In this document: piece after piece, positions 1-56,493 of the stretch
Layout: every line of letters starts with the position of its first letter
How positions within the stretch are numbered: position 1 is the stretch's first letter
Source: Escherichia coli
Lineage (GTDB): Bacteria; Pseudomonadota; Gammaproteobacteria; Enterobacterales; Enterobacteriaceae
DNA length: 64,000 nucleotides
NCBI RefSeq assembly: GCF_016026235.1
Contig: NZ_CP065613.1
Reading direction: 5' to 3' (one strand)
Translations under genes and position numbers: made by a program
Notes under the pieces: model-generated
Told to the model about the DNA's origin: nothing
Databases searched by the model: none
The model's input: the letters and a program-made list of their open reading frames with translations, nothing else

Positions 1-705
1 TCGCCGACGCCGGACGAACCGGGCCATACTCTGGGCGGCTACTCACAACAGATCGTCGTTCATGAGCGATATGTTCTGCGTATTCGTCACCCGCAAGAGC
101 AGCTGGCGGCGGTGGCTCCTTTGTTGTGTGCAGGGATCACCACGTATTCGCCGCTACGTCACTGGCAGGCCGGGCCGGGTAAAAAAGTGGGCGTGGTCGG
201 CATCGGCGGTCTGGGACATATGGGGATCAAGCTGGCCCACGCGATGGGGGCGCATGTGGTGGCATTTACCACTTCTGAGGCAAAACGCGAAGCGGCAAAA
301 GCCCTGGGGGCCGATGAAGTTGTTAACTCACGCAATGCCGATGAGATGGCGGCTCATCTGAAGAGTTTCGATTTCATTTTGAATACAGTAGCTGCGCCAC
401 ATAATCTCGACGATTTTACCACCTTGCTGAAGCGTGATGGCACCATGACGCTGGTTGGTGCGCCTGCGACACCGCATAAATCGCCGGAAGTTTTCAACCT
501 GATCATGAAACGCCGTGCGATAGCCGGTTCTATGATTGGCGGCATTCCAGAAACTCAGGAGATGCTCGATTTTTGCGCCGAACATGGCATCGTGGCTGAT
601 ATAGAGATGATTCGGGCCGATCAAATTAATGAAGCCTATGAGCGAATGCTGCGTGGTGATGTGAAATATCGTTTTGTTATCGATAATCGCACACTAACAG
701 ACTGA
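1..705 (+). CDS. yahK: Zn-dependent alcohol/aldehyde dehydrogenase (MDR family), C-terminal part; 5-prime end lies outside the window
   Basis: Frame is open from base 1 to the stop at 703-705; Rossmann motif GVVGIGGLGHMG; conserved position upstream of yahL. Confidence 0.85.
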   Translation, partial: SPTPDEPGHTLGGYSQQIVVHERYVLRIRHPQEQLAAVAPLLCAGITTYSPLRHWQAGPGKKVGVVGIGGLGHMGIKLAHAMGAHVVAFTTSEAKREAAKALGADEVVNSRNADEMAAHLKSFDFILNTVAAPHNLDDFTTLLKRDGTMTLVGAPATPHKSPEVFNLIMKRRAIAGSMIGGIPETQEMLDFCAEHGIVADIEMIRADQINEAYERMLRGDVKYRFVIDNRTLTD

Positions 706-947
706 AAAAATTAATAAATACGCTGTGGTTTAACATATTAACTTCGCTCTCCACTTAACTTTTTAGTTAAGGAGAGCGAAATAATATCAAAGTAGCAGTA
801 AAACCTATAACGTAAATTCAAATTGTTAAATTAACTCCCTCCAGTACACAATACTTCACACGTTAGTTATGAGCGATTTCTGATAGTGCCTGGTTTAATC
901 AGCGCTTTATTATCTGCGACGTTTATTTTTATTTAAGAGAGATCGCG

Positions 948-1763
948 ATGATATCATTAAAAGCTCCGCACAATAATTTGATGCCATATACGCAACAAAG
1001 CATACTTAATACGGTTAAAAACAATCAGTTACCAGAGGATATCAAAAGCTCCCTGGTTTCCTGTGTCGATATATTCAAGGTTTTGATTAAACAATATTAT
1101 GATTATCCTTATGATTGTCGTGATGATTTAGTCGATGACGACAAACTCATTCATCTCATGGCTGCCGTACGAGACTGTGAGTGGTCAGACGATAACGCAC
1201 TCACCATAAATGTGCAGTTTAATGATTTCCCAGGATTTTATGACTGGATGGATTACCCTGATCACCCGGTTAAGTTTGTTTTTCGCATACTTGAAAATCA
1301 AAAAGGGACAGTTTGGGTATATGACCAGGATGATGCGTTTCTTGATATTAAAGCAAATGTGCAGGCTGGACGCTTTACCGGGCTTAAGAAATTAGTGCAG
1401 TTTATCAATTCAGTGCGAACAGATTGCAAATGTATTCTTCTTGAACGCCATATGCCTTTGCTGAGACTTTTCCCTAAAGGGAAAGAGTGTATCCATGTGG
1501 AAAAATGGCTTCGCGAAATGTCGTCTATGCCGGAGACAGACGCGCCCATTAAGCAGGCGCTTGCGCATGGATTATTATTACACTTAAAAAATATCTACCC
1601 TGTTTTTCCTGAATCACTGGTGATGTTATTGCTCTCTGTTCTGGACGTAAAAACATACAGAGATGATGCGCGATTAAATCAATGGATAACTAATAGAGTG
1701 CAGGAATTAGGTGACAGATATTATCCTGTAAATAAGCACGTTAAAATCCGCTACACTCTTTAG
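948..1763 (+). CDS. yahL: Hypothetical protein YahL (271 aa), no recognisable domain
   Basis: 271-aa ORF in a markedly AT-rich segment, preceded by an AT-rich leader; size and position match yahL. Confidence 0.75.
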   Translation: MISLKAPHNNLMPYTQQSILNTVKNNQLPEDIKSSLVSCVDIFKVLIKQYYDYPYDCRDDLVDDDKLIHLMAAVRDCEWSDDNALTINVQFNDFPGFYDWMDYPDHPVKFVFRILENQKGTVWVYDQDDAFLDIKANVQAGRFTGLKKLVQFINSVRTDCKCILLERHMPLLRLFPKGKECIHVEKWLREMSSMPETDAPIKQALAHGLLLHLKNIYPVFPESLVMLLLSVLDVKTYRDDARLNQWITNRVQELGDRYYPVNKHVKIRYTL

Positions 1764-1989
1764 TTCAGAAAGGGTTCCACCTGCAAGTTGTTATTCCACC
1801 AGAGAGTGAATCGCAATGCAGGTAATCATTTCATCTGTATATCTGTATGCCAACTGGCATTCCATCTCTTTTTTCGCCGATATTTTGTTGTGATCGGCGA
1901 CACTTCGCTTAAAAAAACACCAGCAGTGGTTTCGCAGCTATGCGGTGTATAAAAAATGATCTTATGCAGATGTTTTGTGAATGTGTGGG

Positions 1990-2017
1990 TTGACATTCAT
2001 ATGAAAAAAATCATAAT
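1990..2017 (+). promoter_or_regulatory. Candidate sigma-70 promoter (TTGACA, 16-bp spacer, CATAAT) upstream of yahM
   Basis: TTGACA at 1990-1995 and CATAAT at 2012-2017 read directly from the sequence; not tested. Confidence 0.3.
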
Positions 2018-2175
2018 TCCATCATGTTTGTGTGGGGTCTTTTCTGTATCTTACGCATCGCACTCAAGCCTGACAGAAAATATGCTGTAAGGCTCATATC
2101 AAAAACCGCCATTAGCTCATCAGGAAGAGCAGACGACAACCAGGATTGTTGTATGGTACGGGGTTCGAGGCCTCG

Positions 2176-2421
2176 ATGGCGGTCCAACTTTTCAAAACTC
2201 TTCTGAATCAGATCCCCTTATTATCATCCCTGCAAAGTGGAACATTGCCATTGTTTGGCTATTCAGGACGGGTCAGACCAATGAAAAAAGCCCACACAGG
2301 GGAGAGTGGGCTGAAATGGGAAGCTAAAGACTCAAGTAAACTTATCGGAAATAAGGACCACGCATTACGGGGGCTATCATCGCCGATGGTCGGGATTCGG
2401 CAAATCAGGTTGATTACGTAG
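2176..2421 (+). CDS. yahM: Small hypothetical protein YahM (81 aa)
   Basis: ORF 2146-2421 with an internal ATG at 2176 giving the 81-aa product MAVQLFKTLLNQ...; start choice uncertain. Confidence 0.5.
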   Translation: MAVQLFKTLLNQIPLLSSLQSGTLPLFGYSGRVRPMKKAHTGESGLKWEAKDSSKLIGNKDHALRGLSSPMVGIRQIRLIT

Positions 2422-2437
2422 AGAGTAAATTATCTGC

Positions 2438-3109
2438 TCACCGCTGCGTCACCCCTTCGTAAATCAGGCGTAGCGCGAATACACCAATAATTGCACCAAT
2501 AACCCGACTGGCAACGCGTTGCATACGCCCATAAGCACGACGCACAGCGGGCAAAGAAAACGCCTGACTAAGAAAGACTCGCCAGATAATTGATGCGAGT
2601 ACAATCCCCGCCCAGGCCATTAAACGTGCCCATGTTGGTGTTTCGGCATTTAATGTTACTGAGAAAATACTAATAAAAAATAAAACGGTTTGCGGGTTAG
2701 AGAGATCGGTAATTAATCCGCGGCGAAAAAAGACATACCAGGGGGCGTTAATCGGTTGTTGTAGTGTGCTCATTTGCGGTGTTGACTGGCGGCGCATGCT
2801 GCACCACGCAAACCATAAGAGATAAGCGCCGCCGACGATTCTGATAAGCGAAAAAATCTCCTCACACTGCGTAATTAGTGTTGCAAGACCAAACAAACCC
2901 AACCCGGAATAAAATGCATCGCCCAGCGCCACGCCCAGCCCGGTCAGCACCCCTGCGCGTCGACCGGAAGCCAGGCTGGTTTGTACTACCACAAAGAGAT
3001 TGGCTCCCGGATTAAAAAAAGTAATCACGAACAGTCCTACGGTCAGGTAAACGGCGTGCAAAGGATCCATAGTGATTTCATCCATAAATAAGTGAACTAA
3101 CTTCATCAT
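2438..3109 (-). CDS. yahN: LysE/RhtB-family amino-acid exporter (223 aa)
   Basis: 223-aa hydrophobic multi-helix ORF; conserved position between yahM and yahO. Confidence 0.85.
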   Translation of the reverse strand: MMKLVHLFMDEITMDPLHAVYLTVGLFVITFFNPGANLFVVVQTSLASGRRAGVLTGLGVALGDAFYSGLGLFGLATLITQCEEIFSLIRIVGGAYLLWFAWCSMRRQSTPQMSTLQQPINAPWYVFFRRGLITDLSNPQTVLFFISIFSVTLNAETPTWARLMAWAGIVLASIIWRVFLSQAFSLPAVRRAYGRMQRVASRVIGAIIGVFALRLIYEGVTQR

Positions 3110-3255
3110 ATTTCTACCAAAAATAATCGGGTGCGAGAGAGATCACAAAGTGTCTTATTTCCGGTTACTGGCGTTTATGCCCTGACTGAACTAATTATTA
3201 ATCAACCCAATAATGTCGGTGGGTGATAGTGTGATAACAACTCTGGAGCCGTAAT

Positions 3256-3531
3256 ATGAAAATAATCTCTAAAATGTTAGTCGGTGCGTTAGCGTTTGCC
3301 GTTACCAATGTCTATGCCGCTGAATTGATGACCAAAGCGGAATTTGAAAAAGTTGAATCGCAGTATGAAAAAATAGGTGATATTTCAACCAGCAATGAAA
3401 TGTCGACTGCAGATGCAAAAGAAGATTTGATCAAAAAAGCGGATGAAAAAGGGGCTGATGTGTTGGTACTGACCTCCGGTCAAACTGACAATAAGATCCA
3501 CGGCACGGCAAATATTTATAAGAAGAAGTAA
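3256..3531 (+). CDS. yahO: Small periplasmic DUF1471-family protein (91 aa) with signal peptide
   Basis: N-terminal signal peptide [21 protein letters not shown]; 91 aa. Confidence 0.85.
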
Positions 3532-3628
3532 TTCTGAATCCTATGTAAACATCTCCGATGCGTAAGTTTATCGGTGATCATCTATTGAAATTTATGCCGG
3601 ATAAAGCGTTCGCGCTGCATTCGGCAGT

Positions 3629-5212
3629 TCAGCTTTTCAGCCGCCGCCAGAACGTCGTCCGGCTGATGCCTAAATAATTCGCCGCTGCTGTTTTATCGCC
3701 ATTAAATTTCTCCAGTGCCTGTTGTGGTGTCAGTAAGCGTGGAGCGGGAGTTTTCGCCGACTCGCGCGCCAGTTCCGGCAGTAGCAGCTGCAAAAATTGC
3801 GGCGTTAAATCCGGCGTCGGTTCCACACTTAAAAATAGCGCCAGTCGCTCCATCATATTGCGCAGTTCACGAATATTGCCCGGCCAGTCGTAGTGCACCA
3901 GCACGGTTTCGCTTGCCTGTAATCCCTGGCGTAATGCGGCAGAAAACGGGGCGGAGAGCGCCGCCAGAGACACTTTTAAAAAGCTTTCCGCCAGCGGCAG
4001 AATATCCGCCACCCGCTCGCGCAGTGGTGGCAATTGCAGACGCAAAATACTCAGCCGATAAAACAGATCACGGCGAAAACGTCCTTGCCGCATATCTTCT
4101 TCCAGATTGCAGTGAGTGGCGCTAATGACCCGTACATCTACCGGAACAGGCTGATGCCCGCCGACGCGGGTGACCTCTTTTTCTTCCAGCACCCGCAGCA
4201 GCCGGGTCTGCAACGGCAGCGGCATTTCGCCTATCTCGTCAAGAAACAGCGTGCCACCGTGGGCAATTTCGAACAGCCCGGCGCGACCTCCGCGTCGCGA
4301 GCCGGTAAACGCCCCTTCCTCATAGCCAAACAGTTCTGCTTCCAGCAGCGATTCGGCTATCGCCCCGCAGTTGACGGCAACAAACGGATGCGACTTTTTG
4401 CCCTGTCGCGCATCGTGGCGGGCAAAATATTCCCGATGAATCGCCTGGGCCGCCAGCTCTTTACCCGTCCCCGTTTCCCCCTCAATCAACACCGCTGCAC
4501 TGGAGCGGGCATACAGCAAAATAGTCTGCCGTACTTGTTGCATCTGTGGTGATTGACCGAGCATATCGCCCAGCACGTAACGAGTTCTCAGGGCGTTGCG
4601 GGTGGCATCGTGAGTGTTATGGCGTAACGACATGCGCGTCATATCCAGCGCATCGCTGAACGCCTGGCGCACGGTGGCGGCGGAATAGATAAAAATTCCG
4701 GTCATTCCGGCTTCTTCTGCCAAATCGGTAATCAGCCCTGCGCCGACCACCGCTTCGGTGCCGTTAGCTTTTAGCTCGTTAATCTGCCCGCGTGCGTCTT
4801 CCTCGGTAATGTAGCTACGTTGGTCGAGGCGCAAATTAAAGGTTTTTTGAAACGCCACCAGCGCTGGAATGGTTTCCTGATAGGTGACAACGCCGATAGA
4901 AGAGGTGAGTTTTCCGGCTTTTGCCAGTGCCTGTAACACATCGTAGCCGCTCGGTTTAATCAAAATAACTGGCACTGACAGGCGGCTTTTCAGGTACGCG
5001 CCGTTAGAGCCAGCAGCGATGATGGCGTCACAGCGTTCGTTTGCCAGTTTCTTGCGGATGTAGGTCACTGCTTTTTCAAAGCCAAGCTGAATAGGGGTAA
5101 TGTTCGCCAGGTGATCAAACTCGAGGCTGATATCGCGAAACAGCTCGAACAGGCGCGTTACAGATACCGTCCAGATAACCGGTTTGTCGTCATTAAGCCG
5201 TGGTGGATGTGC
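3629..5212 (-). CDS. prpR: Sigma-54-dependent transcriptional activator of propionate catabolism (528 aa)
   Basis: AAA+ sigma-54 activator motifs GETGTGKE and GAFTGS, C-terminal HTH; divergent from prpB; start taken at MAHPPRL (the ORF track extends 4 codons further upstream). Confidence 0.9.
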
Positions 5213-5391
5213 CATAGCGCACCGCAAAGTTAAGAAACCGAATATTGGGTTTAGTCTTGTTTCATAATTGTTGCAATGAAACGCGGTGAAACATTGCCTG
5301 AAACGTTAACTGAAACGCATATTTGCGGATTAGTTCATGACGTTATCTCTAACAAATTGAAATTAAACATTTAATTTTATTAAGGCAATTG

Positions 5392-5406
5392 TGGCACACC
5401 CCTTGC
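5392..5406 (+). promoter_or_regulatory. Sigma-54 (-24/-12) promoter for prpBCDE
   Basis: TGGCAC-N5-TTGC read at 5392-5406, about 45 bp upstream of the prpB start, facing prpR. Confidence 0.8.
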
Positions 5407-5452
5407 TTTGTTTTATTAACGAAAATAACAAGTTGATAACAAAGGATGGGCT

Positions 5453-6343
5453 ATGTCTCTACACTCTCCAGGTAAAGCGTTTCGCGCTGCACTGACTAAA
5501 GAAAATCCATTGCAGATTGTTGGCACCATCAACGCTAATCATGCGCTGTTGGCGCAGCGTGCCGGATATCAGGCAATTTATCTCTCCGGCGGTGGCGTGG
5601 CGGCAGGGTCGCTGGGGCTGCCCGATCTCGGTATTTCTACTCTTGATGACGTGCTGACAGATATTCGCCGTATCACCGACGTTTGTTCGCTGCCGCTGCT
5701 GGTGGATGCGGATATCGGTTTTGGTTCTTCTGCTTTTAACGTTGCGCGTACGGTGAAATCGATGATTAAAGCCGGTGCGGCGGGATTGCATATTGAAGAT
5801 CAGGTTGGTGCAAAACGCTGTGGTCATCGCCCGAACAAAGCGATCGTCTCGAAAGAGGAGATGGTGGATCGGATCCGCGCGGCGGTGGATGCGAAAACCG
5901 ATCCTGATTTTGTGATCATGGCGCGCACCGATGCGCTGGCGGTTGAAGGACTGGATGCGGCGATCGAGCGTGCGCAGGCCTATGTTGAAGCTGGTGCCGA
6001 GATGTTGTTCCCGGAGGCGATTACCGAACTCGCCATGTACCGCCAGTTTGCCGATGCGGTGCAGGTGCCGATCCTCGCCAATATTACCGAATTTGGCGCA
6101 ACGCCGCTGTTTACCACCGACGAATTACGCAGCGCCCATGTCGCAATGGCGCTGTACCCGCTTTCAGCGTTCCGCGCCATGAACCGCGCCGCTGAACATG
6201 TCTACAACGTCCTGCGTCAGGAAGGCACGCAGAAAAGTGTCATCGACACCATGCAGACCCGCAACGAGCTGTACGAAAGCATCAACTACTACCAGTACGA
6301 AGAGAAGCTCGACGATCTGTTTGCCCGTAGCCAGGTGAAATAA
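5453..6343 (+). CDS. prpB: 2-methylisocitrate lyase (296 aa)
   Basis: Isocitrate-lyase/PEP-mutase family sequence including KRCGH motif; first gene of the prp operon. Confidence 0.95.
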
Positions 6344-6384
6344 AAAACGCCCGTTGGTTGTATTCGACAACCGATGCCTGATGC

Positions 6385-6470
6385 GCCGCTGACGCGACTT
6401 ATCAGGCCTACGGGTGTACTGAACTGTAGGTCGGATAAGACGCATGGCGTCGCATCCGACAACAATCCCG
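6385..6470. repeat. BIME made of two inverted REP elements in the prpB-prpC spacer
   Basis: gcctgatgcg...cttatcaggcctac and gtaggtcggataag...gcatccgac palindromic units. Confidence 0.7.
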
Positions 6471-6502
6471 ACCCTACAAATGATAACAATGACGAGGACA
6501 AC

Positions 6503-7672
6503 ATGAGCGACACAACGATCCTGCAAAACAGTACCCATGTCATTAAACCGAAAAAATCTGTGGCGCTTTCTGGCGTTTCGGCGGGCAATACGGCGCTCTG
6601 CACCGTGGGTAAAAGTGGCAATGACTTGCATTACCGTAGTTACGATATTCTTGATCTGGCGGAACATTGCGAATTTGAAGAAGTGGCGCATCTGCTGATC
6701 CACGGCAAACTGCCGACCCGTGACGAACTCGCCGCTTACAAAACGAAACTGAAAGCCCTGCGCGGTTTACCGGCTAATGTGCGTACTGTGCTGGAAGCCT
6801 TACCGGCGGCGTCGCACCCGATGGATGTTATGCGCACCGGCGTTTCCGCGCTCGGCTGCACGCTGCCAGAAAAAGAGGGGCATACCGTCTCCGGCGCGCG
6901 GGATATTGCCGACAAACTGTTGGCGTCGCTGAGCTCGATTCTTCTCTACTGGTATCACTACAGCCATAACGGCGAACGCATCCAGCCGGAAACCGATGAC
7001 GACTCAATAGGCGGTCACTTCCTGCATCTGCTGCACGGCGAAAAGCCATCGCAAAGCTGGGAAAAGGCGATGCATATTTCGCTAGTGCTGTACGCCGAAC
7101 ACGAGTTTAACGCCTCCACCTTTACCAGTCGGGTGATTGCGGGCACCGGCTCTGATATGTATTCCGCGATTATTGGCGCGATTGGCGCACTGCGCGGGCC
7201 GAAGCACGGCGGGGCGAATGAAGTGTCGCTGGAGATCCAGCAACGCTACGAAACGCCAGACGAAGCCGAAGCCGATATCCGCAAGCGGGTGGAAAACAAA
7301 GAAGTGGTCATTGGTTTTGGTCATCCGGTTTATACCATCGCCGACCCGCGCCACCAGGTGATTAAACGTGTGGCGAAGCAGCTCTCGCAGGAAGGCGGCT
7401 CGCTGAAGATGTACAACATCGCCGATCGTCTGGAAACGGTGATGTGGGAGAGCAAAAAGATGTTCCCCAATCTCGACTGGTTCTCCGCTGTTTCCTACAA
7501 CATGATGGGCGTTCCCACCGAGATGTTCACACCACTGTTTGTTATCGCCCGCGTCACCGGCTGGGCGGCGCACATTATCGAACAACGTCAGGACAACAAA
7601 ATTATCCGTCCTTCCGCCAATTATGTTGGACCGGAAGACCGCCAGTTTGTCGCGCTGGATAAGCGCCAGTAA
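6503..7672 (+). CDS. prpC: 2-methylcitrate synthase (389 aa)
   Basis: Citrate-synthase family; start set at MSDTTILQN, because the longer ORF from 6374 reads through the REP element. Confidence 0.93.
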
Positions 7673-7705
7673 ACCTCTACGAATAACAATAAGGAAACGT
7701 ACCCA

Positions 7706-9157
7706 ATGTCAGCTCAAATCAACAACATCCGCCCGGAATTTGATCGTGAAATCGTTGATATCGTCGATTACGTGATGAACTACGAAATCAGCTCCAAAGT
7801 GGCCTACGACACCGCACATTACTGCCTGCTCGACACGCTCGGCTGCGGTCTTGAAGCTCTCGAATACCCAGCCTGTAAAAAACTGCTGGGGCCAATTGTC
7901 CCCGGCACCGTCGTACCAAACGGCGTGCGCGTCCCCGGAACTCAGTTCCAGCTCGACCCCGTCCAGGCGGCATTTAACATCGGCGCGATGATCCGTTGGC
8001 TCGATTTCAACGATACCTGGCTGGCGGCGGAGTGGGGCCATCCTTCCGACAACCTCGGCGGCATTCTGGCAACGGCAGACTGGCTTTCGCGCAACGCGGT
8101 CGCCAGCGGCAAAGCGCCGTTGACCATGAAACAGGTGCTGACCGCAATGATCAAAGCCCATGAAATTCAGGGCTGCATCGCGCTGGAAAACTCCTTTAAC
8201 CGCGTCGGCCTCGACCACGTTCTGTTAGTGAAAGTGGCTTCCACCGCCGTGGTCGCCGAAATGCTTGGCCTGACCCGCGAGGAAATTCTCAACGCTGTTT
8301 CGCTGGCGTGGGTGGACGGTCAGTCGCTGCGCACCTATCGCCATGCGCCGAACACCGGCACGCGTAAATCCTGGGCGGCGGGCGATGCCACTTCCCGCGC
8401 GGTACGTCTGGCACTGATGGCGAAAACGAGCGAAATGGGTTACCCGTCAGCCCTGACTGCGCCGGTGTGGGGCTTCTACGACGTCTCCTTTAAAGGTGAA
8501 TCGTTCCGCTTCCAGCGCCCGTACGGTTCCTACGTTATGGAAAATGTGCTGTTCAAAATCTCCTTCCCGGCGGAGTTCCACTCCCAGACGGCAGTTGAAG
8601 CAGCGATGACGCTCTATGAACAGATGCAGGCAGCAGGCAAAACGGCGGCGGATATCGAAAAAGTGACCATTCGCACCCACGAAGCCTGTATTCGCATCAT
8701 CGACAAAAAAGGGCCGCTCAATAACCCGGCAGACCGCGATCACTGCATTCAGTACATGGTGGCGATCCCGCTGCTATTCGGGCGCTTAACGGCGGCAGAT
8801 TATGAGGACAACGTTGCGCAAGATAAACGCATTGACGCCCTGCGCGAGAAGATCAATTGCTTTGAAGATCCGGCATTTACCGCTGACTACCACGACCCGG
8901 AAAAACGCGCCATCGCCAATGCCATTACCCTTGAGTTCACCGACGGCACACGATTTGAAGAAGTGGTGGTGGAGTACCCCATTGGTCATGCTCGCCGCCG
9001 TCAGGATGGTATTCCGAAACTGGTCGATAAATTCAAAATCAATCTCGCGCGCCAGTTCCCGACTCGCCAACAGCAGCGCATTCTGGAGGTTTCTCTCGAC
9101 AGAACTCGCCTGGAACAGATGCCGGTCAATGAGTATCTCGACCTGTACGTCATTTAA
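7706..9157 (+). CDS. prpD: 2-methylcitrate dehydratase (483 aa)
   Basis: MmgE/PrpD family, 483 aa, operon position. Confidence 0.95.
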
Positions 9158-9196
9158 GTAAACGGCGGTAAGGCGTAAGTTCAACAGGAGAGCATT

Positions 9197-11044
9197 ATGT
9201 CTTTTAGCGAATTTTATCAGCGTTCGATTAACGAACCGGAGCAGTTCTGGGCCGAGCAGGCCCGGCGTATTGACTGGCAGACGCCCTTTACGCAAACGCT
9301 CGACCACAGCAATCCGCCGTTTGCCCGTTGGTTTTGTGAAGGCCGAACCAATTTGTGCCACAACGCTATCGACCGCTGGCTGGAGAAACAGCCAGAGGCA
9401 CTGGCATTGATTGCCGTCTCTTCGGAAACAGAAGAAGAGCGCACCTTTACCTTTCGCCAGCTGCATGACGAAGTGAACGCGGTGGCCTCAATGTTGCGCT
9501 CACTGGGCGTGCAGCGCGGCGATCGGGTGCTGGTGTATATGCCGATGATTGCCGAAGTGCATATTACTCTGCTGGCCTGCGCGCGCATTGGTGCTATTCA
9601 TTCGGTGGTATTTGGTGGTTTTGCCTCGCACAGCGTGGCGGCGCGAATTGATGACGCTAAACCGGTGCTGATTGTCTCGGCTGATGCCGGAGCGCGCGGT
9701 GGCAAAATCATTCCCTATAAAAAATTGCTCGACGATGCGATAAGTCAGGCGCAGCACCAGCCACGCCATGTTTTGCTGGTGGATCGCGGGTTGGCGAAAA
9801 TGGCGCGCGTCAGCGGGCGGGATGTCGATTTCGCGTCGTTGCGCCATCAACACATCGGCGCGCGGGTACCGGTGGCGTGGCTGGAATCCAACGAAACCTC
9901 CTGCATTCTCTACACTTCCGGCACGACCGGCAAACCTAAAGGCGTGCAGCGTGACGTCGGCGGATATGCGGTGGCGCTGGCGACCTCGATGGACACCATT
10001 TTTGGCGGCAAAGCGGGCAGCGTGTTCTTTTGCGCATCGGATATCGGCTGGGTGGTGGGGCATTCGTATATCGTTTACGCGCCGCTGCTGGCGGGGATGG
10101 CGACTATCGTTTACGAAGGATTGCCGACCTGGCCGGACTGCGGCGTGTGGTGGAAAATCGTCGAGAAATATCAGGTTAGCCGGATGTTCTCAGCGCCGAC
10201 CGCCATTCGCGTGCTGAAAAAATTCCCTACCGCTGAAATTCGCAAACACGATCTCTCGTCGCTGGAAGTGCTCTATCTGGCTGGAGAACCGCTGGACGAG
10301 CCGACCGCCAGTTGGGTGAGCAATACGCTGGATGTGCCGGTCATCGACAACTACTGGCAGACCGAATCCGGCTGGCCGATTATGGCGATTGCTCGCGGTC
10401 TGGACGACAGGCCGACGCGTCTGGGAAGCCCCGGCGTGCCGATGTATGGCTATAACGTGCAGTTGCTTAATGAAGTCACCGGCGAACCGTGTGGCGTCAA
10501 CGAGAAAGGGATGCTGGTGGTGGAAGGGCCGCTGCCGCCGGGGTGTATTCAGACCATCTGGGGCGACGACGACCGCTTTGTGAAGACTTACTGGTCGCTG
10601 TTTTCCCGCCCGGTGTACGCCACCTTTGACTGGGGCATCCGTGACGCTGACGGTTATCACTTTATTCTCGGGCGCACTGACGATGTAATTAACGTTGCCG
10701 GGCATCGGCTGGGCACGCGCGAGATTGAAGAGAGTATCTCCAGTCATCCGGGCGTTGCCGAAGTGGCGGTGGCGTTTGTCATTCCGAAAGAGAGCGACAG
10801 TCTGGAAGATCGTGATGTGGCGCATTCGCAAGAGAAGGCGATTATGGCGCTGGTGGACAGCCAGATTGGCAACTTTGGCCGCCCGGCGCACGTCTGGTTT
10901 GTCTCGCAATTGCCAAAAACGCGATCCGGAAAAATGCTGCGGCGCACGATCCAGGCGATTTGCGAAGGACGCGATCCTGGGGATCTGACGACCATTGATG
11001 ATCCTGCGTCGTTGGATCAGATCCGCCAGGCGATGGAAGAGTAA
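9197..11044 (+). CDS. prpE: Propionyl-CoA synthetase (ANL-family acyl-CoA synthetase), 615 aa; appears to carry an in-frame internal deletion near the C-terminal domain
   Basis: AMP-binding motif YTSGTTGKPKG and C-terminal PKTRSGK; the protein reads ...HPGVAEVAVAFVIPKE..., lacking the expected VVGxxDxxKGQ segment. Confidence 0.9.
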   Translation: MSFSEFYQRSINEPEQFWAEQARRIDWQTPFTQTLDHSNPPFARWFCEGRTNLCHNAIDRWLEKQPEALALIAVSSETEEERTFTFRQLHDEVNAVASMLRSLGVQRGDRVLVYMPMIAEVHITLLACARIGAIHSVVFGGFASHSVAARIDDAKPVLIVSADAGARGGKIIPYKKLLDDAISQAQHQPRHVLLVDRGLAKMARVSGRDVDFASLRHQHIGARVPVAWLESNETSCILYTSGTTGKPKGVQRDVGGYAVALATSMDTIFGGKAGSVFFCASDIGWVVGHSYIVYAPLLAGMATIVYEGLPTWPDCGVWWKIVEKYQVSRMFSAPTAIRVLKKFPTAEIRKHDLSSLEVLYLAGEPLDEPTASWVSNTLDVPVIDNYWQTESGWPIMAIARGLDDRPTRLGSPGVPMYGYNVQLLNEVTGEPCGVNEKGMLVVEGPLPPGCIQTIWGDDDRFVKTYWSLFSRPVYATFDWGIRDADGYHFILGRTDDVINVAGHRLGTREIEESISSHPGVAEVAVAFVIPKESDSLEDRDVAHSQEKAIMALVDSQIGNFGRPAHVWFVSQLPKTRSGKMLRRTIQAICEGRDPGDLTTIDDPASLDQIRQAMEE

Positions 11045-11045
11045 G

Positions 11046-11693
11046 GTATTGTCGGATGCGTCGCGTGGCGCATCCGACACCATGCGCCGATGCCTGATGC
11101 GACGCAGACGCGTCTTATCATGCCTACAGGCCTGAACCGTAGGTCGGATAAGGCGCTCGCGTCGCATCCGACACCCCGCGCCGATGCCTGATGCGACGCT
11201 GGCGCGTCTTATCATGCCTACAGGTCTGAACCGTAGGTCGGATAAGGCGCTCGCGCCGCATCCGACACCGTGCGCCGATGCCTGATGCGACGCAGACGCG
11301 TCTTATCATGCCTACAGGTCTGAACCGTAGGTCGGATAAGGCGCTCGCGCCGCATCCGACACCATGCGCCGATGCCTGATGCGACGCAGGCGCGTCTTAT
11401 CATGCCTACAGGCCTGAACCGTAGGTCGGATAAGGCGCTCGCGCCGCATCCGACACCGTGTGCCGATGCCTGATGCGACGCTGATGCGTCTTATCATGCC
11501 TACAGGCCTGAACCGTAGGTCGGATAAGGCGCTCGCGCCGCATTCGACACCATGCGCCGATGCCTGATGCGACGCAGGCGCGTCTTATCATGCCTACAGG
11601 CCTGAACCGTAGGTCGGATAAGGCGCTCGCGCCGCATCCGACACCGTGCGCAGTTGCCTGATGCGACGCTTACCGCGTCTTATCATGCCTGCC
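11046..11693. repeat. Tandem BIME/REP array, about 7 copies of a 94-bp unit
   Basis: Unit cgcatccgacacc...gtaggtcggataaggcgctcgcg recurs at 11069, 11163 and then every 94 bp; this produces four spurious 61-aa ORFs. Confidence 0.85.
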
Positions 11694-16711: not shown

Positions 16712-17866
16712 ATGCTGCTGGTTCTGGTGCTGATTGGTCTTAATATGCGACCACTGCTCACCTCCGTCGGGCCACTGCTACCGCAATTGCGCCAGGCGAG
16801 CGGAATGAGCTTTAGCGTGGCTGCCCTGTTGACCGCTCTTCCGGTGGTCACCATGGGCGGGCTGGCGCTGGCCGGAAGCTGGCTTCATCAGCATGTCAGC
16901 GAACGTCGCAGTGTCGCCATCAGTCTGTTGCTGATTGCCGTCGGTGCATTGATGCGTGAGCTTTACCCCCAAAGTGCGCTGCTGCTTAGCAGCGCACTGC
17001 TTGGTGGGGTGGGGATCGGCATCATTCAGGCGGTGATGCCTTCGGTGATTAAACGGCGGTTTCAGCAGCGCACGCCACTGGTGATGGGGCTGTGGTCCGC
17101 GGCTCTGATGGGCGGCGGTGGACTTGGTGCCGCCATAACGCCCTGGTTAGTTCAACATAGCGAAACCTGGTATCAAACACTCGCCTGGTGGGCGCTGCCT
17201 GCCGTTGTTGCGCTCTTTGCCTGGTGGTGGCAAAGCACCCGCGAGGTCGCCTCTTCCCACAAGACAACAACCACTCCGGTTCGCGTGGTTTTCACTCCTC
17301 GCGCGTGGACGCTGGGTGTTTACTTTGGTCTGATTAACGGTGGTTACGCCAGCCTGATTGCCTGGTTACCCGCCTTCTATATTGAGATTGGTGCCAGCGC
17401 GCAGTACAGCGGTTCCTTGCTGGCATTGATGACGCTTGGGCAAGCCGCAGGAGCTTTGCTGATGCCTGCTATGGCTCGCCATCAGGATCGGCGCAAACTG
17501 TTAATGCTGGCGCTGGTGTTACAACTGGTGGGGTTCTGCGGCTTTATCTGGCTGCCGATGCAATTGCCGGTATTGTGGGCGATGGTGTGTGGATTAGGTC
17601 TGGGCGGCGCGTTTCCGCTCTGTTTGCTGCTGGCGCTCGATCACTCTGCGCAACCGGCTATTGCTGGCAAGCTGGTGGCGTTTATGCAGGGGATCGGTTT
17701 TATCATCGCCGGGCTTGCCCCGTGGTTTTCTGGCGTGCTGCGTAGTATCAGCGGCAATTACCTGATGGACTGGGCGTTTCATGCGCTGTGCGTCGTTGGG
17801 CTGATGATCATAACCCTGCGTTTTGCACCAGCACGTTTTCCGCAGCTGTGGGTCAAAGAGGCATGA
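16712..17866 (+). CDS. cynX: MFS cyanate transporter (384 aa)
   Basis: 12-TM MFS protein; start taken at MLLVLVLIG, 9 codons inside the ORF-track start. Confidence 0.85.
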   Translation: MLLVLVLIGLNMRPLLTSVGPLLPQLRQASGMSFSVAALLTALPVVTMGGLALAGSWLHQHVSERRSVAISLLLIAVGALMRELYPQSALLLSSALLGGVGIGIIQAVMPSVIKRRFQQRTPLVMGLWSAALMGGGGLGAAITPWLVQHSETWYQTLAWWALPAVVALFAWWWQSTREVASSHKTTTTPVRVVFTPRAWTLGVYFGLINGGYASLIAWLPAFYIEIGASAQYSGSLLALMTLGQAAGALLMPAMARHQDRRKLLMLALVLQLVGFCGFIWLPMQLPVLWAMVCGLGLGGAFPLCLLLALDHSAQPAIAGKLVAFMQGIGFIIAGLAPWFSGVLRSISGNYLMDWAFHALCVVGLMIITLRFAPARFPQLWVKEA

Positions 17867-18645: not shown

Positions 18646-19944
<1,299 letters not shown>

Positions 19945-24265: not shown

Positions 24266-24294
24266 ATCATGCCATACCGCGAAAGGTTTTGCGC
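24266..24294 (-). promoter_or_regulatory. lacI promoter (-35 GCGCAA, 17-bp spacer, -10 CATGAT), wild-type, not the Iq allele
   Basis: Reverse complement reads gcgcaaaacctttcgcggtatggcatgat; overlaps the stop codon of the upstream AraC-type gene. Confidence 0.8.
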
Positions 24295-25220
24295 CATTCG
24301 GCGGGGCTGACGCCGAAGTGAGATTTAAAATGCTGACGCCAGGTCACAGGTGAGAGAAAACCCACCTCAGCCGCTATCCGCTCAACGGGCAACTGACTGG
24401 ATCCCAACAGTTCCTGGCTACGGCGTAAGCGTTCAGTAATGAGCCATTCGGCGATACTCGAACCGGTCGCTTTCATAAAATGGCGAGTTAATGTGCGGCG
24501 ACTCATCATTACTCGCTGCGCCAGCGAGTCGAGATCATGCTGTTGCGCAATGTTTTGCCGCAGGTAATCCAGCAGGAGGTTTATGCGTTCATCATGGGTA
24601 TTTTTCGGCACCGGTTGCTCAATAAACTGCGCCTGACCGCCAGTGCGATATGGCGGTACGACCATCCGTCGGGCAATATGGTTAGCATAGTCGCTGCCAA
24701 AATGTTGCCGAACAATATACAAACAGCAATCCAGCGCCGCGGCAGTACCGGCAGAGGTAATAATGCCGTCATCGTCTACGTACAACGCGTTAATATCCAG
24801 ATGTGTTTGTGGAAAACGTGCCTGAAATTCACGCTCGAACTCCCAGTGTGTGGCGGCACGCTTATTTTTCAGTAAACCTGCATAGCCGAGCACAAACGTG
24901 CCCAGGCAAAGCCCGACAATCTGTGCGCCGTTATCCCGTGCGGTCGTTAAGGCTTCCAGCAGTTTTTGTGGCGGTTTTTGTGTAATGGTTCCCCAGTAAG
25001 GAATTATCACAATATCTGCCTGGATGACTGCGGTATAGTCATGGGGGGCGGTTACGGAAAACCCATCGGCAGAGTCCACGTTTCCCGGCTTTTCAGCGCA
25101 GATAATTACGTGAAAGTGTTTTTTCTCCGCCATTTTTTCGCTAAATACGATAAACGGTACGGAAAGGTGAAAAGGACTAAAACCGGCAACGGCGATAATG
25201 GCAACAGTTAGCGGGCGCAT
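24267..25220 (-). CDS. AraC-family transcriptional regulator with N-terminal DJ-1/PfpI (GlxA-like) domain, 317 aa
   Basis: C-terminal AraC HTH (RRTLTRHFMKATGSSIAEWLITERLRRSQELL ... WRQHFKSHFGVSPAEWRK); N-terminal class-I glutamine-amidotransferase-like fold. Confidence 0.75.
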   Translation of the reverse strand: MRPLTVAIIAVAGFSPFHLSVPFIVFSEKMAEKKHFHVIICAEKPGNVDSADGFSVTAPHDYTAVIQADIVIIPYWGTITQKPPQKLLEALTTARDNGAQIVGLCLGTFVLGYAGLLKNKRAATHWEFEREFQARFPQTHLDINALYVDDDGIITSAGTAAALDCCLYIVRQHFGSDYANHIARRMVVPPYRTGGQAQFIEQPVPKNTHDERINLLLDYLRQNIAQQHDLDSLAQRVMMSRRTLTRHFMKATGSSIAEWLITERLRRSQELLGSSQLPVERIAAEVGFLSPVTWRQHFKSHFGVSPAEWRKTFRGMA

Positions 25221-33425: not shown

Positions 33426-33470
33426 TGATGACTGCCGATAACGTGCATTTTGTATGCCCATCCCAGCACG

Positions 33471-33920
<450 letters not shown>

Positions 33921-46581: not shown

Positions 46582-47544
46582 ATGGCAATTTCATCGCGTA
46601 ACACACTTCTTGCCGCACTGGCATTCATCGCTTTTCAGGCACAGGCGGTGAACGTCACCGTGGCGTATCAAACCTCAGCCGAACCGGCGAAAGTGGCTCA
46701 GGCCGACAACACCTTTGCTAAAGAAAGCGGAGCAACCGTGGACTGGCGTAAGTTTGACAGCGGAGCCAGCATCGTGCGGGCGCTGGCTTCAGGCGACGTG
46801 CAAATCGGCAACCTCGGTTCCAGCCCGTTAGCGGTTGCAGCCAGCCAACAGGTGCCGATTGAAGTCTTCTTGCTGGCGTCAAAACTGGGTAACTCCGAAG
46901 CGCTGGTGGTAAAGAAAACTATCAGCAAACCGGAAGATCTGATTGGCAAACGCATCGCCGTACCGTTTATCTCCACCACCCACTACAGCCTGCTGGCGGC
47001 GCTGAAACACTGGGGCATTAAACCCGGGCAAGTGGAGATTGTGAACCTGCAGCCGCCCGCGATTATCGCTGCCTGGCAGCGGGGAGACATTGATGGTGCT
47101 TATGTCTGGGCACCGGCGGTTAACGCCCTGGAAAAAGACGGCAAGGTGCTGACCGATTCTGAACAGGTCGGGCAGTGGGGCGCGCCAACGCTGGACGTTT
47201 GGGTGGTGCGCAAAGATTTTGCCGAGAAACATCCTGAGGTCGTGAAAGCGTTCGCTAAAAGCGCCATCGATGCTCAGCAACCGTACATTGCTAACCCAGA
47301 CGTGTGGCTGAAACAGCCGGAAAACATCAGCAAACTGGCGCGTTTAAGCGGCGTGCCTGAAGGTGACGTTCCGGGGCTGGTGAAGGGGAATACCTATCTG
47401 ACGCCGCAGCAACAAACGGCAGAACTGACCGGACCGGTGAACAAAGCGATTATCGACACCGCGCAGTTTTTGAAAGAGCAGGGCAAGGTCCCGGCTGTAG
47501 CGAATGATTACAGCCAGTACGTTACCTCGCGCTTCGTGCAATAA
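46582..47544 (+). CDS. tauA: Taurine-binding periplasmic protein, 320 aa
   Basis: Signal peptide, NMT1/SsuA-like binding protein; first gene of tauABCD. Confidence 0.95.
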   Translation: MAISSRNTLLAALAFIAFQAQAVNVTVAYQTSAEPAKVAQADNTFAKESGATVDWRKFDSGASIVRALASGDVQIGNLGSSPLAVAASQQVPIEVFLLASKLGNSEALVVKKTISKPEDLIGKRIAVPFISTTHYSLLAALKHWGIKPGQVEIVNLQPPAIIAAWQRGDIDGAYVWAPAVNALEKDGKVLTDSEQVGQWGAPTLDVWVVRKDFAEKHPEVVKAFAKSAIDAQQPYIANPDVWLKQPENISKLARLSGVPEGDVPGLVKGNTYLTPQQQTAELTGPVNKAIIDTAQFLKEQGKVPAVANDYSQYVTSRFVQ

Positions 47545-51699: not shown

Positions 51700-54645
<2,946 letters not shown>

Positions 54646-55335: not shown

Positions 55336-56493
55336 TCAGGATGCGGGGATAACCAACGGTTTATTCCCGCTTAGCTCGGTCACCAGGTCATTGATGCCAT
55401 CGCTCATATTTTTAAAGCGCGTCAACGGCGAACGAGTGACCACCACAAACGCGCCAATATTCTTCTGCGGGATCATCGCCATATAGGTAATGAAACCGCC
55501 ACCACCGCCTGTCTTCTGAATAATCCCCGGACGCCCCTCTTTCGGGGCCATATATACCCAGCCTAAACCAAGCGCATCCGCTTTGCCGGGGACATCCATA
55601 CCAATCACTTTCGTAAACTGCGCGCGCTGATAAATCAACGTCTGCATGCGATCAGCCTGGTTACTGCGCTGATAAAAATCAGATGACAAATACTGCTGCA
55701 TCCAGCGCATCATATCGCCAGGCGTGGAATAGACGCCGCCGCTGCCAATTGCCGCCAGCGTGTTATTGCATGGACTGGCACCGCGCTCTGCAACCATTAA
55801 ACGGCGGCACTGATCCGGTGAGGGGGTGTAGGTGGTGTCTTTCATCCCCAATGGACGGGTAATCTGCTCTTCAAACAACTGGGTATAAGGCTTGCCGGAC
55901 GCATTCGCCAGTGCATCTGCCAGCAGGTCGAACGCAAGGTTAGAGTACGCCGCCTGACTGCCTGGCGCGGCTTTCAGCTTCGCCGTAGAAAGGTATTTCC
56001 AGCGTTGCTCGCGCGTTGGCCAGACAAACACCGGACGATGTGCCGCGCCACCGGGCTGTTCACGGGGCAGGGCGCTGGTATGGGTTGCCAGATTGACCAG
56101 CGTAATGGGCGTCCCATTGTAGGTTGGCACGCGTGCGCCTGGCGGAGCATATTTACTTAGCGGATCGTTTAACTTCACGGTCCCCTGGTCGAGCAATTTC
56201 ACCAGCATCTCACTGGTCATTAGCTTGGTGAGGGAAGCAATACGCACGACCGAATCCAGTTGCGGGCGAACGTTATTACCAGGTCGCGTTTCGCCATAAC
56301 TGCGAAAGACGCGCTGGTTACCGTCGATAACAACCAGCGCCATCCCCGTGGCACCGCTGCCGTAAAAAATATGATCGGCATAACGATCGACAATATCAGA
56401 GGCAAACTCCGGTTCAGTGATCGGCTGCGCCGCATGGACGGAGGTCAATGACGCCGCACACAGCACGGCAGAAAAAAGCAGACTACGTTTCAA
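55336..56493 (-). CDS. ampH: Penicillin-binding protein AmpH (class C beta-lactamase-like DD-peptidase), 385 aa
   Basis: Signal peptide; SxxK active-site motif (ASLTK). Confidence 0.95.
   Translation of the reverse strand: MKRSLLFSAVLCAASLTSVHAAQPITEPEFASDIVDRYADHIFYGSGATGMALVVIDGNQRVFRSYGETRPGNNVRPQLDSVVRIASLTKLMTSEMLVKLLDQGTVKLNDPLSKYAPPGARVPTYNGTPITLVNLATHTSALPREQPGGAAHRPVFVWPTREQRWKYLSTAKLKAAPGSQAAYSNLAFDLLADALANASGKPYTQLFEEQITRPLGMKDTTYTPSPDQCRRLMVAERGASPCNNTLAAIGSGGVYSTPGDMMRWMQQYLSSDFYQRSNQADRMQTLIYQRAQFTKVIGMDVPGKADALGLGWVYMAPKEGRPGIIQKTGGGGGFITYMAMIPQKNIGAFVVVTRSPLTRFKNMSDGINDLVTELSGNKPLVIPAS

Follow-up and report, generated by a model that had tools for sequence, protein, structure and literature searches.

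A natural 39-bp in-frame deletion at a short direct repeat in Escherichia coli prpE, with predicted disruption of the C-terminal domain of propionate--CoA ligase

The prpE gene in the stretch of Escherichia coli DNA analysed here (the window, 64,000 nucleotides in all) carries a real 39-bp deletion, which removes 13 codons in frame from the gene for propionate--CoA ligase. We think it probable that this is a recent, natural, repeat-mediated event, that the C-terminal domain of the product is misfolded as a consequence, and that the result is a null or severely hypomorphic allele that the cell tolerates. The features of the window that bear on this are as follows, in window coordinates.

3629–9157: the rest of the propionate locus, apparently intact, comprising prpR (− strand, open reading frame 3629–5227), prpB (5453–6343), prpC (open reading frame 6374–7672) and prpD (7706–9157).
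9197–11044, + strand: the prpE deletion allele (propionate--CoA ligase), an open reading frame encoding 615 aa as compared to 628 aa.
9557–9559, + strand: codon 121, GCC to GTC (A121V), a second lineage-specific change, at an alanine that is invariant in the family.
10721–10933, + strand: the shortened AMP-binding_C domain, residues 509–579, from which the greater part of one beta-strand, the turn and the beginning of the following strand are missing.
10763–10772, + strand: the deletion junction, where one copy of the 10-bp direct repeat GTGGCGGTGG remains of the two that full-length alleles have.
10913–10933, + strand: the A10 motif PKTRSGK, intact in the translation, with the catalytic/acylatable lysine K579 (K592 in full-length numbering).

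The identification of this gene as prpE, made in an earlier sequence-only reading of the window, is borne out by the open reading frame, by its identity to the prpE genes of FDAARGOS_943 and K-12 DH1, by its Pfam domains, and by its position in the locus. In both of these strains prpE is 1887 bp long and encodes 628 aa, and DNA alignment of the window gene with either gives a single clean gap of 39 bp and no other indels, with 99.8% identity to FDAARGOS_943 and 98.7% identity to K-12 DH1 outside the gap. Where the two full-length proteins read ...HPGVAEVAVVGVKDALKGQVAVAFV..., the translated window protein reads ...SSHPGVAEVAVAFVIPKESDS..., with ...ISSHPGVAEVAVAFVIPKESDS... around 10750–10790, and the missing 13 codons specify VAVVGVKDALKGQ, K-12 residues 523–535. 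The sequence-only reading had given the length of K-12 PrpE as 628 aa and its sequence here as VAVVGVKDALKGQ, and had proposed a 39-bp in-frame deletion with an intact downstream frame and PKTRSGK motif; the alignment with K-12 prpE agrees with all of this, and the size of the deletion is exact. Pfam recognizes three domains in the shortened protein, ACAS_N (PF16177, 81 bits), AMP-binding (PF00501, 255 bits) and AMP-binding_C, of which the last is considered below. The A3 P-loop YTSGTTGKPKG is retained at residues 239–249, and the A8 hinge region GRTDDVINVAGHRLGTREIE and the A10 motif are both identical to those of K-12.

The gene is the last of prpBCDE, with prpR divergently transcribed and codBA downstream, and this organization is collinear with that of FDAARGOS_943, DH1 and AF14. 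The window is ~99.9% identical to FDAARGOS_943 over at least 48 kb, and positions 1–10772 align with four mismatches and no gaps, the prp genes of that genome being annotated as intact. General decay of the neighbourhood is ruled out, in that prpR, prpBCD, lacY, tauA and a glxA-like gene are all intact; the last three of these are pseudogenes in the closest complete genome. Relative to the PrpE proteins of K-12 and Salmonella enterica (AMP-forming enzymes of the ANL superfamily), the window protein has the same prpR-prpBCDE-codBA setting, shares 99–100% of aligned residues, and has the same domains and motifs, but it lacks residues 523–535 and carries the A121V substitution. Alanine 121 is kept in 24/24 PrpE homologues, with valine in the window lineage, and a 37-mer containing the A121V T has no match in any of the 5,426 complete E. 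coli genomes. This substitution fits a relaxation of constraint, though it is one change only.

The segment that is missing from the window is a well-conserved part of the family. A homologue search covered about 5.8 billion proteins, and 24 diverse PrpE homologues were then aligned with the window protein. Homologue lengths are 628–636 aa, in genera including Kluyvera, Salmonella, Pseudocitrobacter, Shimwellia, Pluralibacter, Xenorhabdus, Photorhabdus, Collimonas, Herbaspirillum and Noviherbaspirillum, which disposes of the possibility, raised in the sequence-only reading, that reference PrpE proteins of the Enterobacteriaceae are also about 615 aa and lack the segment. The 13 residues are kept in 24/24 homologues, down to 69% identity, and the window protein is the only gapped row in the alignment. 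The pattern VAV[VI]G[VI]xDxxKGQ is retained in all of the homologues, those of beta-proteobacteria included, and the V, A, V, G, D, K, G and Q residues of the segment are each conserved in at least 90% of the aligned rows. Within E. coli, among 5,226 records with prpE, the longer form is seen in the best matches and in 30/30 evenly sampled records, where the 1848-bp query matches in two pieces that span 1886–1887 bp. The 24 homologues and the longer E. coli records thus rule out that the short form is the ancestral or normal one for the family, and because the segment is present in all homologues and outgroup genera, and the nearest relatives of both known deletion alleles (see below) are full length, the short PrpE is derived.

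The position of the junction points to how the deletion may have formed. In full-length alleles GTGGCGGTGG is located at gene positions 1567 and 1606, a spacing of 39 bp, and the DNA lost from prpE amounts to one copy of the repeat together with the 29-bp spacer, the usual outcome when short direct repeats misalign. The sequence-only reading had taken the junction to be one copy of a short direct repeat, which is correct (the repeat is 10 bp), but had placed it at 10764–10773, one base too high; its suggestion of slippage is in keeping with two parental copies, a product with one copy, and the loss of exactly 39 bp. The junction in the protein is seamless because the repeat begins at a codon boundary (V-A-V-), and because the number of lost bases is divisible by 3, translation continues in frame and the product is still annotated as 'propionate--CoA ligase'.

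The site is prone to slippage. The 1887-bp prpE has only three pairs of direct repeats of at least 10 bp whose copies are no more than about 105 bp apart (873/909, 999/1104 and 1567/1606), and three ten-mers are repeated within 100 bp, as compared to a mean of 0.38 in codon-shuffled versions. The junctions predicted for the other two pairs were searched for as controls; that of the 999/1104 repeat (a 105-bp deletion) is present in one complete genome, H9Ecoli, and that of the 11-bp pair 873/909 (a 36-bp deletion) is found in none of the complete E. coli genomes. The 873/909 repeat is equally good and yet has no deletion allele, and repeat content alone is therefore no predictor of the deletions that are seen. 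Secondary structure in the spacer is an optional enhancer of such deletions; folding of the 69-nt DNA region gives z-scores of −0.47 for the + strand and +0.45 for the − strand, and we have rejected hairpin-assisted slippage because the spacer folds no better than shuffled sequence.

A plausible pathway is one in which misalignment independent of RecA would join the two copies of GTGGCGGTGG 39 bp apart, either through replication slippage or through template switching in a post-replication gap, such that one repeat copy and the 29 bp between the copies would be removed with the frame preserved. We infer the RecA independence from the 10-bp length of the repeat alone, and the misalignment itself from the structure of the junction. 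RecA-independent deletion between short direct repeats is a general phenomenon that has been described previously (PMC7145654), and the prpE event resembles it in having closely spaced direct copies, of which the window product keeps exactly one with loss of the spacer; however, the prpE repeat is 10 bp in length and the repeats in that assay are 101 bp.

The exact 615-aa protein is represented elsewhere in the public record (e.g. EHD3361470.1, HAI2283782.1, HBD0229795.1, HGF4609707.1 and UniParc UPI00057020BA) and is encoded on 14–17 public contigs, one of them 5.07 Mb long, and two draft assemblies match the window over 5–8 kb with sequences that are identical or nearly so. A one-residue variant of the 615-aa PrpE (P0012) is also on record. 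Because the identical protein is present on many contigs from independent assemblies, the allele is in circulation and assembly error is excluded as its source. For an estimate of frequency we used the complete E. coli genomes, of which 5,224/5,426 contain prpE by megablast and about 4% have no prpE match. A 37-mer centred on the junction (10752–10788; junction k-mer GGGCGTTGCCGAAGTGGCGGTGGCGTTTGTCATTCC) was searched in all 5,426, in a search that needs a 28-base exact word, such that full-length alleles cannot match. Only two genomes contain it (2/5,426, or two of about 5,224 with prpE); these are AF10 and AF14, both blood-culture isolates from the United Kingdom, and the deletion protein of the AF type is found on 16 contigs.

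The window and AF alleles share a junction on different prpE backgrounds. Their prpE genes have 49 nucleotide differences, and the SNPs nearest to the junction lie 49 bp away on its upstream side and 47 bp away on its downstream side. The window prpE differs by 3 nt from the full-length allele of FDAARGOS_943, and the AF10/AF14 allele, apart from the 39 bp, matches the full-length prpE of strain MS 21-1 with 100% identity. Since each deletion allele nests in its own full-length background, the same deletion has had at least two independent origins. A single origin followed by spread through recombination is unlikely, as the SNPs 49 and 47 bp away flank the junction and any shared recombination tract would thus have to be shorter than 96 bp. 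An identical junction on two independent genetic backgrounds is a feature of a mutational hotspot.

In the AlphaFold model of the full-length protein, residues 523–535 form most of the first strand of a hairpin together with the turn and the two residues that begin the second strand, such that the loss takes a beta-strand and turn from the core of the C-terminal domain and spares the A8 and A10 catalytic motifs. The best solved matches of the window PrpE are Dinoroseobacter shibae PrpE (5GXD, E 7.7e-157) and S. enterica acetyl-CoA synthetase (1PG4/2P2F, about 1e-129); both have the segment (AVIGVSDTLKGQ in 5GXD and AAVVGIPHAIKGQ in 1PG4/2P2F), whereas the window PrpE has no counterpart, and the HMMER alignment forces the remaining window residues across the hairpin segment of these relatives. 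Pfam still detects AMP-binding_C (PF13193) from end to end in the window protein, with a score of 43.0 bits as compared to 85.0 bits for the full-length form. A complete C-terminal domain includes the VAV[VI]G[VI]xDxxKGQ hairpin, from which the window protein departs by the 13 absent residues. The full-length and 615-aa proteins were both modelled on the same 25-sequence alignment, and the models differ as listed here, with the provisos that they are modest (mean pLDDT about 70, from a shallow alignment) and that AlphaFold is no predictor of mutational stability.

Hairpin strands: residues 520–530 and 534–543 in the full-length model; 520–524 and 527–530, at lower confidence, in the 615-aa model.
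Next strand: residues 578–581 in the full-length model; no counterpart in the 615-aa model, which has a two-residue bridge at 567–568.
C-terminal domain pLDDT, in 10-residue blocks: about 68–84 (mean about 78) in the full-length model; about 49–79 (mean about 60) in the 615-aa model.
N-terminal domain: essentially unchanged in the 615-aa model, with the full-length model as the baseline.

Foldseek comparison with the PDB returns the same top hits for both models (5GXD PrpE and the Acs structures, TM about 0.7), but this is because the N-terminal domain dominates, and the comparison is uninformative as to the lesion. The remaining VAE-VAVAFVIPK sequence is unable to supply both strands, and misfolding or instability of the C-terminal domain is therefore the most likely outcome.

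In ANL enzymes the C-terminal domain adopts two orientations, one for each half-reaction, and is needed in both (PMC3438747), and modification of K592 in S. enterica PrpE abolishes activity (table in PMC6640162). With the central strand pair gone from a domain that is used in both half-reactions, both steps are expected to be lost or strongly reduced; a misfolded domain would lose, or carry out only weakly, both adenylation (which involves the A10 lysine) and the thioester step, and the outcome would be a null or severely hypomorphic prpE allele. The sequence-only reading had suggested that the lesion may impair thioester formation, which seems too specific; a general loss of C-terminal domain integrity is the likelier effect, because the lost residues do not belong to the A8 or A10 motifs and the domain serves both half-reactions. 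Sequence and models together suggest impaired propionyl-CoA synthetase activity, and we infer that the C-terminal domain is destabilised and that PrpE function is lost.

Such an allele would be tolerated by the cell, in that Acs and Pta-AckA-type routes also make propionyl-CoA, and propionate catabolism is conditional. This redundancy of propionate activation, by acetyl-CoA synthetase and by Pta-AckA-type routes, has been described (PMC9765439). Other natural E. coli PrpE proteins also have in-frame deletions, lacking residues 226–258, 262–301, 263–310, 471–574 or 104–248. The first of these (P0007) lacks YTSGTTGKPKG and is found on nine contigs, and from the residues that they have lost, deletions such as this one must, by prediction, be null. 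Horswill and Escalante-Semerena reportedly found in Salmonella that mutants lacking prpE alone can still use propionate for growth, and that they fail to do so once acs is inactivated as well. A null allele is thus tolerable, given the redundant activation, the other null in-frame deletions, and the ~4% of genomes that have no prpE at all. Like the window allele, these other deletions, and the 105-bp repeat-mediated deletion of H9Ecoli with them, shorten prpE in frame and leave a product that is still called a propionate--CoA ligase or AMP-binding protein; the window allele differs in that the others remove N-domain catalytic motifs or far larger blocks. The window deletion is the smallest of them and spares every named catalytic motif, and its effect is therefore less obvious than that of any of the others.

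An alternative is that the C-terminal domain re-packs without the hairpin, that the 615-aa enzyme makes useful amounts of propionyl-CoA, and that the allele drifts as a neutral and functional length polymorphism. Retention of the frame and of YTSGTTGKPKG, GRTDDVINVAGHRLGTREIE and PKTRSGK is compatible with this, as are the end-to-end Pfam match, the intactness of the remaining prp operon, and the persistence of the allele in at least two clones that have both been sampled repeatedly (about 16–17 contigs per clone). However, clearly null in-frame prpE deletions persist at similar frequencies, and persistence is therefore no evidence of function. A working enzyme is also difficult to reconcile with a segment that is nearly invariant in 24/24 homologues down to 69% identity, with a profile score that is halved and models that lose both the hairpin and confidence in the domain, and with the great rarity of the allele (two of the roughly 5,224 complete genomes that contain prpE), and we regard this alternative as unlikely. 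An error of sequencing or assembly is scarcely credible, and the same is true of an ancestral short form with 39 bp inserted elsewhere. Short repeats can in principle confuse assemblers, but a 10-bp repeat is far below read length, and the recovery of the same protein on ~17 contigs from multiple independent assemblies and read sets, together with the same junction in two complete genomes, rules out an artefact; an insertion elsewhere is at odds with the presence of the 13 residues in all outgroup genera and with the full-length nearest relatives of both deletion alleles.

If, as we favor, the allele is a loss of function, its recurrence could reflect either mutation or selection. Loss of PrpE could be advantageous in some niches (extraintestinal infection, or a gut rich in propionate) by lessening propionyl-CoA or 2-methylcitrate toxicity or CoA trapping, and the independent appearance of the identical deletion on two divergent backgrounds, the blood-culture origin of AF10 and AF14, and the many other in-frame prpE deletions in E. 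coli are all in accord with this. But a mutational hotspot alone predicts the recurrence and explains it equally well, the overall frequency of the allele is tiny, and prpBCD, which would detoxify propionyl-CoA, is intact; positive selection for PrpE loss thus seems highly improbable. We attach just as little credence to the specific forms that a selected recurrence might take, in which PrpE is abolished with protection of pathogenic or clinical clones from propionyl-CoA or 2-methylcitrate toxicity, or in which the half-reactions are uncoupled so that propionyl-AMP is made without CoA ligation. Were either of these correct, prpE would be a gene that adaptation inactivates repeatedly in E. coli.

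The gene, the ANL family and the kind of mutation are all familiar, and the allele has already been deposited, although without remark; our literature search found no description of this allele or of prpE pseudogenisation in E. coli. The window allele is a natural lesion of an ordinary kind, in a gene that is dispensable under some conditions, and it neither represents a new system nor opens a long-standing question. It does illustrate a blind spot in annotation, as with an in-frame loss of this type metabolic reconstructions and pan-genome analyses count prpE as present and functional, and it provides a clean natural example of one short-repeat deletion arising twice. The recurrent deletion and the other in-frame prpE deletions suggest that prpE is dispensable in many lineages of E. 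coli, as the redundancy of propionate activation predicts.

Many further PrpE variants with in-frame deletions are present among Escherichia coli and Salmonella records, with segments of 33 (P0007), 40 (P0011), 48 (P0021), 59 (P0008), 45 (P0070), 104 (P0026) and 145 aa (P0046) missing from the public proteins so designated, and some of these have lost the ATP-binding P-loop. The prpE gene of genome H9Ecoli (NZ_CP029180.1) has a 105-bp deletion between a pair of 11-bp repeats, which lie at positions 999 and 1104 of the gene. In every one of these deletion variants the annotation remains propionate--CoA ligase or AMP-binding protein.

Three IS insertions, comprising four IS elements, of FDAARGOS_943, the closest complete relative, are missing from the window, where the corresponding sites are uninterrupted:

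~17711-17721: site of ISEc60 in cynX
~52188-52194: site of IS2 in an autotransporter gene
~55345-55355: site of ISEc60 plus IS5 between ampH and iprA

The window also contains two REP-type tandem arrays:

11069-11690: REP/BIME-like array, 94-bp unit, 6.6 copies, 93% matches
33466-33911: second array, 101-bp unit, 4.4 copies, 97% matches

The 94-bp array fills the prpE-codB intergenic region, which is about 800 bp long in both the window and FDAARGOS_943. The same region is much shorter in K-12 DH1 (about 330 bp) and in AF14 (about 237 bp). The 101-bp array sits between mhpT and mhpE, and the window has one copy more than FDAARGOS_943. In AF10 and AF14, the other lineage carrying the prpE deletion, an IS3-family element is inserted between yahN and yahO (3489-4643 in L003, the AF14 record), and an IS1-mediated deletion (19223-21367 in L003) has removed lacZ and lacI together with part of lacY and the beginning of the mhp cluster.

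We considered whether the prpE lesion is part of a general gene decay in the region. Three genes that are interrupted by internal stops in FDAARGOS_943, and annotated there as pseudogenes, have intact reading frames in the window:

18646-19899, minus strand: lacY
24267-25220, minus strand: glxA-family regulator gene
46582-47544, plus strand: tauA

On this evidence the prpE lesion does not belong to a general decay of genes in the region.

The window's PrpE additionally carries a substitution, A121V:

9557-9559: codon GCC to GTC, SNP at 9558

Alanine is kept at residue 121 in all 24 homologues examined, and the valine variant is private to the window's lineage, because none of the 5,426 complete E. 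coli genomes searched contains the 37-mer with the window's base at this position. A121V may reflect relaxed constraint following the prpE deletion.
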